Made by a program: the position numbers
Assembly: GCA_963845565.1 (NCBI GenBank)
Contig: CAWJSJ010000005.1
Coordinates: forward strand, 832,001-896,000
Direction of reading: 5' to 3'
DNA length: 64,000 bases
DNA from: an uncultured Methylomirabilota bacterium
Lineage (GTDB): Bacteria; Methylomirabilota; Methylomirabilia; Methylomirabilales; 2-02-FULL-66-22
Part shown: in pieces, positions 30,001-36,000 of the stretch
How positions within the stretch are numbered: position 1 is the first letter of the stretch
Layout: every line of letters begins with the position of its first letter

Positions 30001-33000
30001 ACCTCGGACAATCCCCGCAGCGAAGAGCCGGAATTCATCCTCAAAGAAATCGCCTCGGGCATCAAAAAGACGTTCGCTGACGGCAAGGGTCATGCTACAA
30101 TTCCGGACAGACGCGAGGCCATCGGTGCCGCCTTGGCGAACGCGCGGGGCGGCGATTTGGTGGTGATCGCAGGCAAAGGGCACGAAACCTACCAGATTCT
30201 CCGCGACCGCACGATCCCCTTCGACGACCGAGTGGTGGCACGCGAGGCGCTGACAGCCCTGGGCTACGGCGTTCCGGTGCGCGGTTCTCTCACCGAGGAC
30301 CGCTGATGGGGCGTTTCCGTGTTGATCAGGATCAACGGACTGGACACGTTTTATCAATTGACGGGTCGGGGCGACCCGGTGGTCCTGTTGCATGGGTGGG
30401 GTGCCTCGAGCCAGAGCCTGGACGGCGTGGTCGGCTGCCTGGGATCGACCTTTCGGGTCCTGTCCGTGGATCTGCCCGGTTTCGGGTGGAGCCAGGCGCC
30501 GGCGGGCGCCTGGGGGATCGGGGAGTATGCGGACCATGTCCGACAACTCTTGAAACAGGTTGGCATTGGGACGACGGTACTCCTGGGTCACTCGTTCGGC
30601 GGGCGGATCGCCATTCACCTCGCCTCGCACTATCCCGGCCTGGTCTCGCGTTTGATTCTGGTGGCCAGCGCGGGCGTGCGGCCAACGCGAGGTGCCGGAT
30701 ACCACCTCCGGGTCGGCGTCACGAAGGCGCTTCGGTCTCTGCTGCGCGTGCCCGGATTGGGCGGCGTGGGGGACCGGCTCGGGTCGCGGTGGCGGGCACG
30801 GGTGGGGTCACGGGATTATCTCGCCGCGGGCCCGCTCCGGCCGACGCTTGTCAAGGTTGTGAATGAGGATCTGACGTCGATGCTGGCCATGGTCCAAGCA
30901 CCGACTCTTCTCCTGTGGGGCGACCAGGATCAGGAGGTGCGGCGCCCGGCCGTCGAGGTCATGGCCGCGAAGATCCCCCGGGCCCGATTGACCGTGTTTC
31001 CCGGGGCAGGTCATTTCCCGTTCCAGGATGCGCCGGAGAATTTCTGCGAGGCGGTGTTGGCGTTTCTGCGGGAGGGTCAGGCGTGAACGCGTCGGGCGGG
31101 ATCCGCCGATGACATGGCTCGGCAGAGCGGCCGGATTGCTGATCCCCTACGGGGTCGTGGTGGGTCTGCGCTGCCTGGACTGTCTCTACATCCTGCAGTT
31201 GGAACGGTACAAGCCGGACCGATACCAGAGTTGGCTGGCGAGCCATCGGCGTATCCTGGTTCCCCGGGGCGAGATCGCCCTGCAGGTCCTGACCGCCGTC
31301 GCCGCCGCGGCGCTGATCGGATTCCATTGGGTTGTGCCGGTCGCCGTCTGGGTCCTGACGGGCCATCTGGTTCGCCGCCGCCGCCGATCGATGCAGGTGA
31401 GCCAGCGGCTGCAGCGGACGGCCCGCGCGATTCGGGTGGGGGCGATGGCGCTCGGGATCGCCGTCGCCGTCGTCGCCGCGGTCCTGCTGGCGGCCGGGCT
31501 GGTATTCATCGCGCCGGCGGCCACGCTGATCGTCGGAGGGATCGCAGCGCTGGCCGTGGTTGGGATCGCGACTCCCGGCATCGTCCTGCTCGCGGCGTAC
31601 GCCATCCTCCCCTGGGAAGACGCCGTTGCGAAGCGTTTCCTGGGCGAGGCGGACCGGCGGATGCGCCGGTTTCCGGGCCGAGTGCTGGGGATCACGGGGA
31701 GCTACGGGAAGACGAGCATGAAGTACGTCGTGGCCGACCTCCTGTCGGCGCGGTACCGGGTGCTGAAGACTCCCGCGGGCGTCAACACCACGATGGGGAT
31801 CACCCGCGTCGTCCGCGAAGACCTGCGGGACGATCACGAGGTCTTCGTGGTGGAAATGTCCGCCTACGGGCCCGGCGAGATCCGCGACGTCTGCGACCTC
31901 GTGCACCCGTCGCTGGGCATTTTGACGGCGGTGGGGGTACAGCACCTGGAGCGGTTCGGCACCCCGGAGCGCATTGCCGAGGCGAAGTACGAACTGCTCG
32001 CCGCCCTGCCGTCGGGCGCGCCGGCCGTGGTCAACGCCGACGATCCGGTGTGCCTCAGTTTGGCGGCCCGCGCCCGGAGCGAGGGGAAGCGCGTGGTGCT
32101 CTACGGGATGGACCCCGCCGTCCGCGATCTCGCCGTACGGGGGATGGACATGGCGGTCAGCGCGCGCGGCAGTCGCCTTCGCGTCGTCACCGCGGCAGGG
32201 GATTCGGAGGTGTTCGACACCAAGCTGCTGGGGCGGTGGAATCTGTCGAACGTTCTTGGCGGTATCGCGGCGGCGCTGGAGTGGGGCGTTCCGCTGACCG
32301 CGATGAAACCGGCGGTGGCGGCCCTGACGCCGGCGCCGCGGCGGCTGGAGATCCACGAGGAGGGCGGCGTCATCCGGATTCTGGACGTGGCCAACGCCAA
32401 TCCCCGCGGGGCGGAGATGGCGCTGGAGGTCCTCGCCCAGTTCTCCGGCGGCTCTCGGATCCTCATCACGCCTGGGATGGTCGAACTGGGCCCGATCGAG
32501 GCCGAGGAGAACCGGCGCTTCGGCGAGAAGGCGGCGTCGGTGTGCGATTACGTCGTGCTGGTCGGACCGGAGCAGACCCGGCCGATTCGCCAGGGATTGA
32601 CGGAGCGCGGGTTTCCGGCGGAGCGGGTTCTCACCGCGCGCGGCGCGGACGAGGTCGCAGACCGACTGGCAGGTCTCGTGCGGCCGGGGGACATCCTGCT
32701 CTACGAAAACCGCCTCCCTGACACGTATCTCGAGGTTGCGCCATGACGCGTGTGGGTTTGATCTTCGGCAGCCGCTCGGTCGAGCACGAGATCTCCATCA
32801 CGACCGCCGGTAAGGCGTACGAGGTGCTGCGTCAGCTCCGCGGCGAGTACGAGACCGTGCCGATCTACCTGACCAAAGCCGGCGCGTGGCTCACGGGTCC
32901 TGGCGTGGAGCGACTCCTGACCGTCGAGGCGGAGGGCCGCGCGTGCCAGGATCCGGCCCGCCGCAAGGCCCTCCAGGAGAGCTACAAGGCGCACCTCCAG

Positions 33001-36000
33001 GCGTTGGAGCGGGGTGAGGGCGAGGTGGTCCAGCAGTTCCTGCCGCCCGATCCGACGGTGCGCGGGCTCTGTGGAAATCCGGAGCGGGCCTCCTGGTTCA
33101 AGAAGGCGTTGGGACCGACCCTGGATATCGCCTTCCCGACTGTTCACGGAACGCACGGGGAGGACGGCACGCTGCAGGGCCTCTTCGAACTGGCGGACCT
33201 GCCGTACGTCGGCACCGGGGTCGCCGCGTCGGCGGCGGGGATGGACAAGATCCTGTCCAAGTTGCTCTTTCGCGGGGCAGGCCTGCCGACGGTCGAGGCG
33301 ACGTGGTTCGGTCGGCGTCAATGGCTTGCCGACGAGGCCGCGGCCGTGCACGAGGTCGAATCGCGCCTGGGCTACCCGGTGGTGGTCAAGCCGGCGGTGG
33401 CGGGCTCCAGCGTCGGCATCGCCCGCGCGGCCGGCCCGGCGGAACTCGCCAAAGCGGTGAACCACGCGATCCAGTTCAGCGCGCGGGTGCTGGTCGAAAA
33501 GGCGGTCGATGACCGTCTGGAGATCCAGTGCGCCGTGCTCGGGAACCATGCCCTGGTGGTGTCCGAGTGCGAGGAGTTGACCCAGTCGGCCGGCATCGTC
33601 AGCTTCGAGGATAAATACCTTCGCCGTCCCGGGGCCGCCGAAGCGGACCTCGCGCCCAGCCAGATCCCGGCCCGGATCCCGGCGGACTTGGCGCAGCGGG
33701 CAAAAGCGCTGGCCCTGGCGGCCTTCCAGGCGCTGGACGCGCGGGGCATCGCCCGGGTGGACATCCTGGTGGACCGGCCCACGATGCAGCCGTTTGTCAA
33801 CGAGGTCAACACGCTGCCCGGGTCGCTCTGTCTGCGCCTGTGGGAGGCCAGCGGGGTGGCGCCGGCGGCGCTGGTGCAACGCCTACTGGCGCTGGCCGTG
33901 GAGGGGCACGCGGAGAAGACCCGGACCCGGTTCGAGTCGCGCGAGGGGTCGGGCCTGGTGGATCGGAAACACTTGATGAGTCCCGGAAAGTAGGGGCGCG
34001 TGCTCTACCATCTACTGGTTCCGCTGGCCAAGTTCATCGGCCCCCTGAACGTCTTCCGGTACGTCACGTTCCGGACGGCGGGGGCGTTCCTCACGGCGCT
34101 GCTCGTCACGCTACTCCTTGGGCCCAAGATCATCGATAAGCTTTCGGCGCTGCGGGCCCGGCAGGTCGTGCGCGAGGACGGGCCGCAAAGCCACCTCAAG
34201 AAGGCGGGGACGCCGACGATGGGCGGGGTCCTGATCCTGCTGGCCGTGACGTCGGCGACGCTGCTCTGGGCGCAGCTCACCAATCGATTCATCTGGCTGG
34301 CGTTGCTCACGACACTGGCGATGGGCGCCGTGGGGTTCGTGGACGACTACCTCAAAGTCACACGCGCCAACAGCGTGGGGCTGCGCCCGCGCCAGAAGTT
34401 CGTCCTGCAGGTGGCCATCGGGCTGGCGGTCGGGGTGTACTTGTATCTGTTTCCGGCCGACGAGTTCACGACCCGGCTGGCCATCCCCTTCCTGAAGCGC
34501 TGGATGCCGGAGCTGGGCGTCGCCTACGCTGCGTTTGGCATGCTGGTCATCGTGGGATGCTCGAATGCGGTCAATCTGACCGACGGCCTGGATGGCCTGG
34601 CCATCGTGCCCACGCTGATGGCCGCGGCCACCTTCACGCTGTTTGCCTATGTCGCGGGCCACGCCGCCCTCGCCCGATACCTGCAGGTCATCTACGTGCG
34701 AGGGGCCAGCGAGCTTCCGGTCTTTGCCGCGGCCCTGGTGGGGGCGAGTCTCGGGTTCCTCTGGTACAACGCCCATCCCGCGCAGGTGTTCATGGGCGAC
34801 ACGGGCTCGCTGGCGCTCGGCGGGGCGCTCGCCACGGTGGCCCTGATCACGAAGAATGAGCTCGTCCTGGTGGTGGCCGGCGGCTGCTTCGTGGTGGAAG
34901 CACTGTCGGTGATCATCCAGGTGTTCTGGTACCGGCGGACGGGACAGCGGGTCTTCCGCATGGCGCCCATCCACCACCACTATGAGCTGAACGGGCTGCC
35001 GGAGCCGAAGATCATCGTCCGGTTCTGGATCGTGTCTTTCGTGCTGCAGGTCATCTCGCTGACGACCCTGAAGCTGCGTTGAGGGGCGATGACCGATTGC
35101 GAGCCAGTGATGACGGGCCATTGGGAATTCGTCGGTGGTCATGTGCGGGGATGAGGCATGTGCCCTCAACTCGACGCTGAGTTGCACGGAAAACGGGTGA
35201 CCGTGGTCGGGCTGGCCCGGAGCGGCCTGGCAGTCTGCACGGTCCTGGCGGAGCGCGGGGCCCTGGTTGTCGGGACGGACCGATCCCCGCGCGAGACCCT
35301 CCGCGGGGATCTCGCCGACCTGGAGGCCCGCGGGGTCCGGATCGAAACCGGCGGCCATCGCGCCGAGAGCGTTCTGGGCGCCGACCTGATCGTGATCAGC
35401 CCGGGCGTGCCGACCGACATGCCGCTGCTCGCGCAGGCCCGATCGCAGGGGATCCCGGTCTGGGGCGAGGTGGAACTGGCGTCGCGCCTGACCACGGCCC
35501 GGTTCCTGGGGATCACCGGGACCAACGGGAAGAGCACCACGACCAGTCTGGTGGGGGCGATGCTGGAGTCGGCAGGTTTCCCGGTGGTGGTGGCCGGGAA
35601 CATCGGGACGGCGCTCTGCGCGGTGGTCACGACGCTGACGCCGTCACACTGGGTGGTCGCGGAGCTTTCCAGCTTCCAGCTGGAGACGATCGTGAGTTTC
35701 CGGCCGCAGGTGGCGGCCCTCCTCAACCTGGCGCCGGATCATCTGGACCGGTACGCGGATCTGGACGCCTACTACGCCGCCAAGGCCCGGATCTTCATGA
35801 ATCAGACCGCGGACGACTATGCCGTTCTGAACGCGGACGATCCGCCGACCCTGGCGTGGGCGCGCGGGGTCCGGTCCCAGCCCCGCCTCTTCAGCCGGAT
35901 GCGGACGATGGGGGACGGGGCCTTCGTACGGGACGGCCGCCTGATCGTCCGGCGGGACGGACGAACGGACGCGGTCTGCGGAATCGGCGAGATCCGGATC

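Follow-up and report, generated by a model that had tools for sequence, protein, structure and literature searches.

A co-inherited hydrolase, predicted membrane-domain MurF and short-loop Ddl in place of the standard Ddl and MurF in two Methylomirabilota families and other phyla

The Ddl and MurF steps of peptidoglycan synthesis are taught as universal and cytoplasmic. Among Mur ligases, MurT lacks the usual domain 1, is paired with a hydrolase, takes lipid II as substrate and works at the membrane. The closest described system to the one reported here is ddl-estV-murF of Helicobacter pylori, in which the same three families are adjacent and the genes are annotated individually; HP0739 we take to be EstV. 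HP0738 and HP0740 are the other H. pylori cassette genes (PMC3229698 supplement). The Campylobacter jejuni arrangement cj0798c / cj0796c / cj0795c, each gene bearing a standard name in PMC5530802, matches as well, a link drawn from the gene order in that paper and from other Campylobacterota loci. In its available portions, the Campylobacterota literature regards the two ligases as an ordinary MurF and Ddl and the third protein as a lipase or putative hydrolase; EstV is currently filed as a lipase, Cj0796c as a hypothetical protein. The literature searched, which covered few subscription papers, yielded no description of a membrane MurF or of the cassette as a unit, nothing on the cytoplasmic precursor pool of H. 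pylori or C. jejuni or on the role of the KxSR motif of MurF, and no joint assay of the three proteins; we found no precursor data in the accessible part of the HupA paper.

The window analysed here is a stretch of 64,000 nucleotides from an uncultured Methylomirabilota bacterium. As a preliminary description had stated, a hydrolase, an altered MurF and a short Ddl lie in it between murE and mraY, all on the forward strand:

28747..30306, + strand: murE (context), NF001126 at 562.8 bits against a cut-off of 373, PF01225 present
30319..31086, + strand: alpha/beta serine hydrolase, PF00561, relative of H. pylori EstV
31109..31669, + strand: predicted membrane domain of MurF, residues 1-187, from hydropathy, an all-helical model, conservation and alignment to the H. 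pylori MurF N-terminus
31670..32746, + strand: catalytic domains 2 and 3 of MurF, PF08245 and PF02875, with MurF as best structural matches
32743..33993, + strand: Ddl with a four-residue deletion after TLPG, NF002528 and TIGR01205, both over cut-off
34000..35082, + strand: mraY (context), PF00953 and PF10555

The murE gene, whose likely start is the ATG at 28774, encodes an ordinary three-domain MurE with DNPR, a sign of meso-DAP addition, and the enzyme probably adds this residue. For murF the most likely start is the ATG at 31109, giving 545 aa over 31109-32746; the start at 31028 from the ORF finder falls within the hydrolase gene. The ddl start overlaps the murF stop by 4 bases, and mraY begins 6 bases past the ddl stop; the one motif inspected in MraY, the HHH-loop, displays no evident remodelling relative to the sister families. 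Recent transfer of the cassette was rejected, its GC content (0.66-0.70) being that of the flanks, as was an internal sigma-70 promoter (0 found against 0.5 expected). The whole genome, 98.7% complete with 6.4% contamination, yielded one murF and one ddl to tblastn, in agreement with the earlier claim that no other murF exists; a second ordinary murF was dismissed, the remaining Mur matches being MurE, MurD and, on contig C3, an Mpl-like protein.

The cassette MurF shares with the canonical enzyme (TIGR01143; PDB 1GG4, 4QF5, 3ZL8, 4CVM) domains 2 and 3, the ATP-site residues and the dcw position, and a canonical MurF structure is its best match (Z 40.3, rmsd 4.7, 370 aligned), with 4QF5, 3ZL8 and 4QDI as best structural matches of the model. 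Its alignment to TIGR01143 begins only at residue 183, as previously claimed, covers profile positions 67-376 of 418 and scores 200.4 bits, below the cut-off of 288.6. PF01225, the N-terminal alpha/beta UDP-binding domain present in the neighbouring MurE, is absent, and four to five hydrophobic helices, by hydropathy, take the place of this uridine-binding domain 1. The AlphaFold2 model (mean pLDDT 94.2; 70-98 by block of ten in the membrane domain) is all helical over residues 1-187, with no strand before residue 191, and so bears out the proposed replacement of domain 1 by hydrophobic helices. From hydropathy and this model we infer that MurF sits in the membrane. In this domain Q30, Y34, T104, R106 and R109 are invariant (95/95 triad loci) and P168 and E170 nearly so, which suggests more than a bare anchor, since an anchor would not need invariant polar residues. 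Fold searches used the whole model, and Mur ligases filled the matches, leaving the membrane domain barely probed; in the ESM Atlas, residues 1-190 matched only unnamed clusters (best 0.90) and one cluster, at 0.82, with 32% Mur_ligase_M, and a homologue search listed only generic MurF names.

The ATP-site motifs are kept (GITGSYGKT, E249, H279, K293). Compared with canonical MurF, NN has become NT, GSNGK has become GSYGK and, in domain 3, TPGM stands for LGDM and ENDLPD (ENRLPD in this genome) for KxSR. K, S, R and D456 each occur in 32/32 soluble MurFs, 30 of these rows coming from this one phylum by choice of sample, whereas at the same four sites the 128 membrane MurFs of the Ddl branch carry E in 122, D in 111, L in 127 and G in all 128. 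This genome's MurF keeps a basic residue, R535, in the motif, as do 11/95 loci. The structures of MurD and MurE are the basis for assigning carboxylate binding to KxSR, and by this analogy the motif of soluble MurF would bind the carboxylate of the dipeptide. The dcw slot holds no other MurF-like gene, and the cassette MurF may be the enzyme adding D-Ala-D-Ala to UDP-MurNAc-tripeptide.

The Ddl shares fold and catalytic residues with canonical Ddl (TIGR01205; Salmonella DdlA 3I12; ATP-grasp match at Z 40.7, rmsd 2.4, 350 aligned) and differs by a deletion and a Lys-ended tail. The reported lack of four residues after TxPG is visible as a gap after TLPG against Salmonella DdlA, the segment PG-SLCLRLW being four residues shorter than in the Salmonella, S. 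aureus and sister-family enzymes. Scores exceed the cut-offs of NF002528 (308.4 against 262) and TIGR01205 (251 against 245.65 bits), and fall far below those of all Van-type models (best 201.8 against 495 bits, VanG), so that by score the enzyme is not Van-type. Residues E14, H135, S222, K291, Y292, R338, D340, E354, N356 and G360 are invariant among relatives. Ser and Leu still directly follow PG (S361 in 222/223), and the loop, judged by these residues, may have been rebuilt rather than lost; the Gly and Ser/Leu flanking the deletion site are listed among the D-Ala-D-Ala contacts of Ddl in PMC6899670. The tail has a Lys within its last 3 residues in 81/95 loci, against 18.4 expected. A related-locus search with Ddl alone gave 9 close relatives, and prediction of a MurF-Ddl complex from locus-matched alignments gave a score of 0.00 and a mark of 0.32, which counts neither for nor against such a complex.

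H. pylori Ddl (PDB 2PVP, matched via the H. pylori locus) has the same deletion, although 2PVP was not listed in a PDB profile search with the Ddl alignment at E 1e-60. According to PMC6899670, a citing paper, it gives measurable kinetics with free D-Ala; Table 3 there reports a second-site Km of 627 mM for it, a figure marked in a footnote as the highest concentration tested, and one of 1.13 mM for E. coli Ddl.

The hydrolase triad, S92 (GHSFGG), D204 and H232, is invariant in 54 and in 95 relatives. Against the EstV model NF058580 the protein scores 95.7 bits, below the cut-off of 300, which the H. pylori (328.5 bits) and Halarcobacter cassette hydrolases pass; the H. pylori one scores 164 bits on a profile of the present family. 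The cap region is basic: its median net charge over 108 relatives is +8, where a stretch of equal length elsewhere in the protein carries about -0.8. EstV cleaves short-chain esters, as cited in PMC3741291. The C. jejuni cassette hydrolase appears essential: preliminary attempts to delete cj0796c reportedly failed and no transposon inserts were recovered. The same screen is a weak guide to essentiality, because murF (2/1) and ddl (2/4) did carry inserts.

Within the phylum, the cassette had been assigned to two families (f1 and f2) and a soluble MurF to sister families, and we obtained the same split. Among 151 phylum genomes, an N-truncated MurF is the sole form in all 22 f1/f2 genomes that gave a match, and all 116 full-length matches over the cut-off fall in f3-f11. 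The hydrolase is present in the own genome and in 22/23 f1/f2 genomes and in 0/22 sister-family genomes; the 11 Ddl loci from f1/f2 are short-loop and the 19 from sister families long-loop (30 in all). MurF, hydrolase and Ddl swap together within the order, in what was probably a single event, and one genome (G198) carries both complete sets, each ligase next to its matching partner. Across GTDB, the hydrolase was again counted near 66 of the 72 loci, and the recurrence of the triad holds: membrane MurFs, with at least 583 species-level matches, form one clade from more than ten phyla, 68 of them lying on one side of one branch (SH-aLRT 99) in a quick-search tree of the catalytic domains without bootstrap. 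Selection on MurF alone gave 151 loci: at 105 of them the best Ddl is of the short form, at 8 it is cut, 38 have none and no locus has a long one, while 140 have a hydrolase.

The proposed three-gene module thus stands as an exchangeable unit replacing soluble MurF and ordinary Ddl, but not with Ddl as a tight member: hydrolase and MurF are the tight core and Ddl is looser, ddl occurring without the other two in 33/80 flanked loci chosen by the short-Ddl motif. Pairwise-distance correlations among the three proteins (0.83-0.90) were not counted as support, because shared ancestry would produce them too. A hydrolase-MurF fusion in L059 was rejected, the long ORF overlapping a separate hydrolase ORF; MurF-Alr fusions were also rejected as stand-alone MurFs, being called racemases in the accessible part of PMC13726279, where no ligase assay was seen. 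We are confident that the three genes are a co-inherited replacement of the Ddl and MurF step that adds stem residues 4 and 5.

The caveat that the module might be annotated in Campylobacterota already was correct. H. pylori MurF aligns across the membrane domain, has TPG and ANDAP motifs and falls inside the membrane-MurF clade, and a cassette-type MurF is the single MurF in 5/5 Campylobacterota genomes searched. The H. pylori genes differ in order (ddl-hydrolase-murF), lie outside the dcw operon in the loci seen, and are distant in sequence (MurF 25% against the profile). MurT/GatD (PDB 6FQB, 6GS2) matches the cassette MurF structurally over domains 2-3. MurT, however, amidates D-Glu with glutaminase ammonia, whereas the partner of the cassette ligase is a PF00561 Ser-Asp-His esterase, and the latter ligase groups with MurF and, unlike MurT, has predicted integral membrane helices.

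A Patescibacteria branch keeps MurF and hydrolase, while Ddl is not detectable and Alr nearly always undetected; its MurF has K or R at the KxSR site in 17/18, with the hydrolase still present. That a tRNA-dependent FemAB-like transferase, along with a PLP enzyme, supplies the MurF-esterase core in these bacteria is very unlikely; FemAB as a Ddl substitute is weakened because their MurE shows EDPY or no DNPR, and this FemAB may build an ordinary cross-bridge.

Both ligases appear altered, judging from their motifs, at parts handling the terminal D-Ala (loop deletion in Ddl, KxSR to ENDLPD in MurF), an observation new here. These matching changes suggest a different chemistry for this step. The reading that we prefer, at a probability of roughly 40%, is that the terminal residue is not handled as free D-Ala-D-Ala but has its carboxyl masked as an ester, probably one that tethers it to the membrane, until the esterase frees it. 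The short-loop Ddl would still activate D-Ala with ATP, and its second site would take a carboxyl-blocked acceptor, most likely an ester to a membrane-bound carrier, or the carrier hydroxyl itself. In MurF, the conserved polar site in the membrane domain would bind the carrier, and the enzyme would join MurNAc-tripeptide to the amine of D-Ala; the serine esterase, which its basic cap would keep at the membrane, would cleave the ester to leave a normal stem end, or alternatively transfer the acyl group to D-Ala or Gly. Speaking for the blocked ester are the joint swap of all three genes within the order, the changes in both ligases, the invariant polar residues, the 627 mM Km, ester cleavage by EstV and the cj0796c results. 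Against it count the kinetics of H. pylori Ddl with free D-Ala, the Ser and Leu retained after PG, R535 in the own MurF, the K/R beside a hydrolase in Patescibacteria, and a cassette without an obvious carrier-loading enzyme; a capped intermediate was not found reported in the literature searched. The carboxylate role of KxSR, for which we found no paper, is itself deduced, the soluble sample is mostly one phylum and the f1/f2 swap is probably one event. The broader claim, of a second and widespread route to the stem end in which the terminal residue is assembled and joined while tethered to the membrane as an ester, an essential esterase unmasks it and free D-Ala-D-Ala is never a substrate, is doubtful.

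The main rival, somewhat unlikely in our view and able to hold together with the blocked ester, is a reordered pathway in which UDP-MurNAc-tripeptide is already the substrate that MraY transfers to undecaprenyl phosphate. MurF would attach ordinary D-Ala-D-Ala to the tripeptide of lipid I or lipid II, much as lipid II is the substrate of MurT, and the hydrolase would edit or supply a substrate. MurF has lost domain 1, which in Mur ligases binds UDP (PMC12844806 says so for MurC), Q30, Y34, T104, R106 and R109 could grip a lipid pyrophosphate, and the structural matches include MurT, with Z 24.7 across residues 183-539. Loss of domain 1 need not mean a lipid substrate, however, because the Patescibacteria-branch MurEs (11 inspected of 15 loci) all lack it too; MraY is unchanged in the motif inspected, and the Ddl deletion, the Km and the fixed esterase are left unexplained. 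The Mpl-like gene is neutral here.

Ordinary chemistry might instead have moved to the membrane, with free D-Ala-D-Ala and UDP-MurNAc-pentapeptide still made, the membrane domain serving as a scaffold beside MraY, the Lys-ended Ddl tail supplying the positive charge that the acidic ENDLPD loop lacks and the hydrolase acting in quality control. The catalytic residues of both ligases are all kept, acidic MurF loop and Lys tail occur in the same branch while the Ddl-less branch retains its own basic residue in MurF, and a missing partner could make isolated H. pylori Ddl weak. Such a shift, which we judge unlikely, does not account for the retention of a serine esterase in over ten phyla, including where Ddl is absent, and fits poorly with a Ddl so often apart from the other two.

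D-lactate ligases change the omega-loop Tyr, H. pylori sacculi contain pentapeptides ending in D-Ala, and Gly5 is found in bacteria with an ordinary Ddl too. A different stem end, with the short Ddl making D-Ala-Gly, D-Ala-D-lactate or another terminus, MurF domain 3 tuned to it and the esterase clearing the wrong ester product as VanX clears D-Ala-D-Ala, is quite improbable: Y292 of the omega loop is invariant, all Van-type models score far below cut-off, these D-Ala ends and the wider occurrence of Gly5 speak against it, and the membrane domain is left unexplained, even if H. pylori Ddl has a very poor second-site Km for D-Ala and pentaGly5 are the only pentapeptides tabulated for C. jejuni in PMC5530802.

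Even under the plainest rival, a membrane-embedded MurF was not found in the literature searched, and one clade of such MurFs replaces the standard enzymes in more than ten phyla. Should the terminal residue prove to travel in blocked form, a core pathway would have a branch not recognised so far: the unusual kinetics of H. pylori Ddl would be explained, EstV and Cj0796c would gain a function, and the cassette would offer narrow-spectrum targets, absent where the standard pair is used. If the second route is real, the bacteria relying on it would include H. pylori, other Campylobacterota, many gut Clostridia and Muribaculaceae. The cassette also makes testable how Patescibacteria finish the stem peptide without Ddl and Alr.

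The window contains a complete dcw cluster and, as the preliminary description had reported, three closely spaced genes stand on the + strand between the end of murE (30306) and the start of mraY (34000):

30319-31086, + strand: alpha/beta hydrolase, 255 aa, cassette gene
31109-32746, + strand: MurF-like ligase, 545 aa, cassette gene
32743-33993, + strand: Ddl, 416 aa, overlapping the murF stop

No promoter-like sites were found within this three-gene cassette, and its GC content is like that of the flanks. A tblastn search of the whole genome gave no other murF, leaving the ligase of the cassette as the sole MurF, and revealed no second ddl. 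An alanine racemase gene is found elsewhere in the genome. On contig C3 of this genome (about 82500-83200), a Mpl-like murein peptide ligase, judged by eye from its N-terminal sequence, suggests that tripeptide may be recycled. Further observations in the window concern a STAS-domain (anti-sigma antagonist-like) gene between mraZ and rsmH (25127-25513), which recurs in seven related loci, a hexapeptide-repeat transferase seemingly split, possibly by a frameshift, across two overlapping ORFs (23440-23754 and 23579-24112), and a 382-aa ORF 3′ of ftsZ (44661-45809) for which Pfam gave no hit at E 0.001.

The cassette divides the phylum by family. TIGR01143 matched in 141 of 151 genomes, three of those counted being unpublished and none of our claims resting on them: 22 genomes of families f1 and f2 (this one included) have a truncated MurF only, as had been proposed, while 116 genomes of f3-f11 have a full-length MurF and three show partial or split matches. 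Within the order, the hydrolase is present in 22/23 f1/f2 genomes and in this genome, and in none of the 22 genomes of other families. Among the 30 Ddl loci fetched, all 11 from f1/f2 are short-loop and all 19 from sister families are long-loop. Since the genomes compared are kin, this three-gene swap was probably a single replacement event. A quick-search tree of the catalytic domains only sets the membrane MurFs (68 rows) apart by a single branch (SH-aLRT 99); among them, 55 rows make up a Ddl-linked branch and 13 a Patescibacteria branch. The window MurF groups with proteins of Chloroflexota, Myxococcota and Poribacteria, away from the soluble MurF of the sister families, a position which points to a replacement in place.

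The cassette is widespread and real, not an artefact. At least 583 relatives were confirmed. MurF served as the only query for 151 loci (a first set of 72 plus 79 new ones, a few duplicate contigs included), of which 140 carry a hydrolase. Of the same 151 loci, 105 have a short form as their best Ddl, 8 a cut one and 38 none at all; a long form is never the best, and one locus (L059) has a second, long-loop Ddl. In several Chloroflexota (L009, L010, L013, L017) the short Ddl is on the opposite strand, facing murF. Of the 72 source genomes of the first set, 45 were searched. One (G022) has a soluble MurF that stands alone; three further matches of full length share a frame with Alr, and partial fusions of MurF to Alr occur in several Bacteroidota. 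One report characterises fusions of this type as racemases (PMC13726279). Four of five cultured carriers have the cassette alone, including a complete Pseudalkalibacillus chromosome; the fifth, Sporosalibacterium, has both full sets, the cassette and the ordinary pair.

It had been suspected that the module is already annotated in Campylobacterota, and its genes are indeed annotated in two well-studied pathogens, Helicobacter pylori and Campylobacter jejuni. A scan with a short-Ddl pattern, which selects loci on the deletion itself, returned 120 loci, nearly all from Campylobacterota, 80 of them with flanks: 39 with all three genes (one from Lachnospiraceae), 6 with ddl and hydrolase, 2 with ddl and murF, and 33 with ddl alone. 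All five Campylobacterota genomes searched have one MurF, truncated. The order in H. pylori is ddl-hydrolase-murF, unlike the hydrolase-murF-ddl of the window. Its MurF aligns over the membrane domain (probability 100), its hydrolase passes the model of the esterase EstV, cited as favouring C2-C6 esters (PMC3741291), and its Ddl, the protein of PDB 2PVP, has the same four-residue deletion as the window Ddl. The C. jejuni hydrolase gene cj0796c is described as lying between ddl and murF, with preliminary deletion attempts that failed and a possible role in peptidoglycan synthesis (PMC5530802); elsewhere it is listed without inserts, and murF and ddl with inserts (PMC3229698). Our literature search, with bioRxiv supplements outside its scope, found no account of the MurF membrane domain, none that treats the three genes as one module, and no description of matched changes in the two ligases.

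In the Patescibacteria branch, we searched 16 small genomes of unstated completeness, 12 labelled as Patescibacteria lineages and 3 as Gammaproteobacteria. Ten have no Ddl-family match and the other six give weak ATP-grasp matches, with 24-27% identity to the window Ddl or no alignment; Alr occurs in one of the 16. Because this branch keeps the hydrolase without a detectable Ddl, the constant partner of MurF is the hydrolase rather than Ddl. A DegT-like PLP enzyme and/or a FemAB-like protein lies 3′ of murF in 22/25 loci, the remaining three stopping at a contig edge, and one locus (L043:10-3231) encodes membrane MurF and a DegT-like aminotransferase in a single 1073-aa frame. The L043 contig is labelled Anaerolineae and its MurF groups with Patescibacteria proteins; a Patescibacteria-type hydrolase-MurF-FemAB locus (L047) occurs on a contig labelled Bathyarchaeia, probably misbinned. 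MurE is modified too: in all 11 loci inspected, out of 15 (L350-L364), it lacks domain 1, and its P-loop is preceded by some 40 residues that include a moderately hydrophobic helix; its motif reads EDPY or something other than DNPR.

A Mur ligase is also paired with an ester hydrolase, as in the cassette, in four genomes of f9/f10, each of which has an ordinary MurF as well. Here a Mur ligase without domain 1 is fused to a peptidyl-tRNA hydrolase domain, as Pfam confirms for two:

L208:7829-9805 (genome G072), fusion
L209, fusion
L210, fusion
L211:5234-7108 and 16222-18231 (genome G195), fusions

G195 carries three copies near one another. Among the neighbours are a redox enzyme resembling heme oxygenase and an acyltransferase resembling FeeM, and the fusion may acylate aminoacyl-tRNA and then release the product.

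Both ligases of the cassette differ from the ordinary enzymes as the preliminary description had stated. In MurF, domain 1 is replaced: PF01225 is absent, the TIGR01143 alignment begins at residue 183 and the structure model (pLDDT 94.2) is helical to residue 187, with four to five membrane-length stretches according to a crude hydropathy scan. Domains 2 and 3 are present and the ATP-site motifs intact. Since Q30, Y34, T104, R106 and R109 of the membrane domain are invariant in 95/95 triad loci, this domain is more than an anchor. Soluble MurFs display LGDM and KxSR in domain 3, where all 32 rows keep D, K, S and R (30 rows belong to the phylum and the other two to a myxococcal and an unpicked duplicate region, with one unpublished-genome locus excluded). 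In 128 Ddl-branch membrane MurFs, TPGM and ENDLPD replace these motifs; the window MurF has ENRLPD at the latter position, and the Patescibacteria branch retains K or R in the motif. A putative role of KxSR in holding the last residue is argued from the MurD and MurE structures. Ddl is four residues short after TLPG and retains its catalytic residues. In the hydrolase, the triad S92-D204-H232 is invariant among relatives and the cap is strongly basic.

In both ligases the changes appear to fall where the last residue is held. The sole measured short Ddl, that of H. pylori, would barely use free D-Ala at its second site, where the Km of 627 mM equals the highest concentration tested (PMC6899670, Table 3); the same source calls it the least related Ddl. 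The esterase seems always kept, and all three proteins appear to have features directed at the membrane. These four points would be most simply accounted for by a putative membrane-bound carrier that blocks the carboxyl of the terminal residue, a reading to which we give a probability of about 40%. Its weak points are the putative role of KxSR, the Ser/Leu that persist in the shortened Ddl loop, and the basic residue kept in the motif by the window MurF and the Patescibacteria branch. Ligation on a lipid-linked tripeptide, itself compatible with a blocked carboxyl, is a somewhat unlikely alternative. More doubtful is a reading in which the chemistry is ordinary and takes place on a membrane scaffold, a lysine being supplied by the tail of Ddl; Lys is among the last three Ddl residues in 81/95 loci versus 18.4 expected (controls: MurF 19, hydrolase 33). 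A non-standard stem end seems improbable. Our results show that the cassette stands in for Ddl and MurF; with a blocked carboxyl, the esterase would then free that of the terminal residue.
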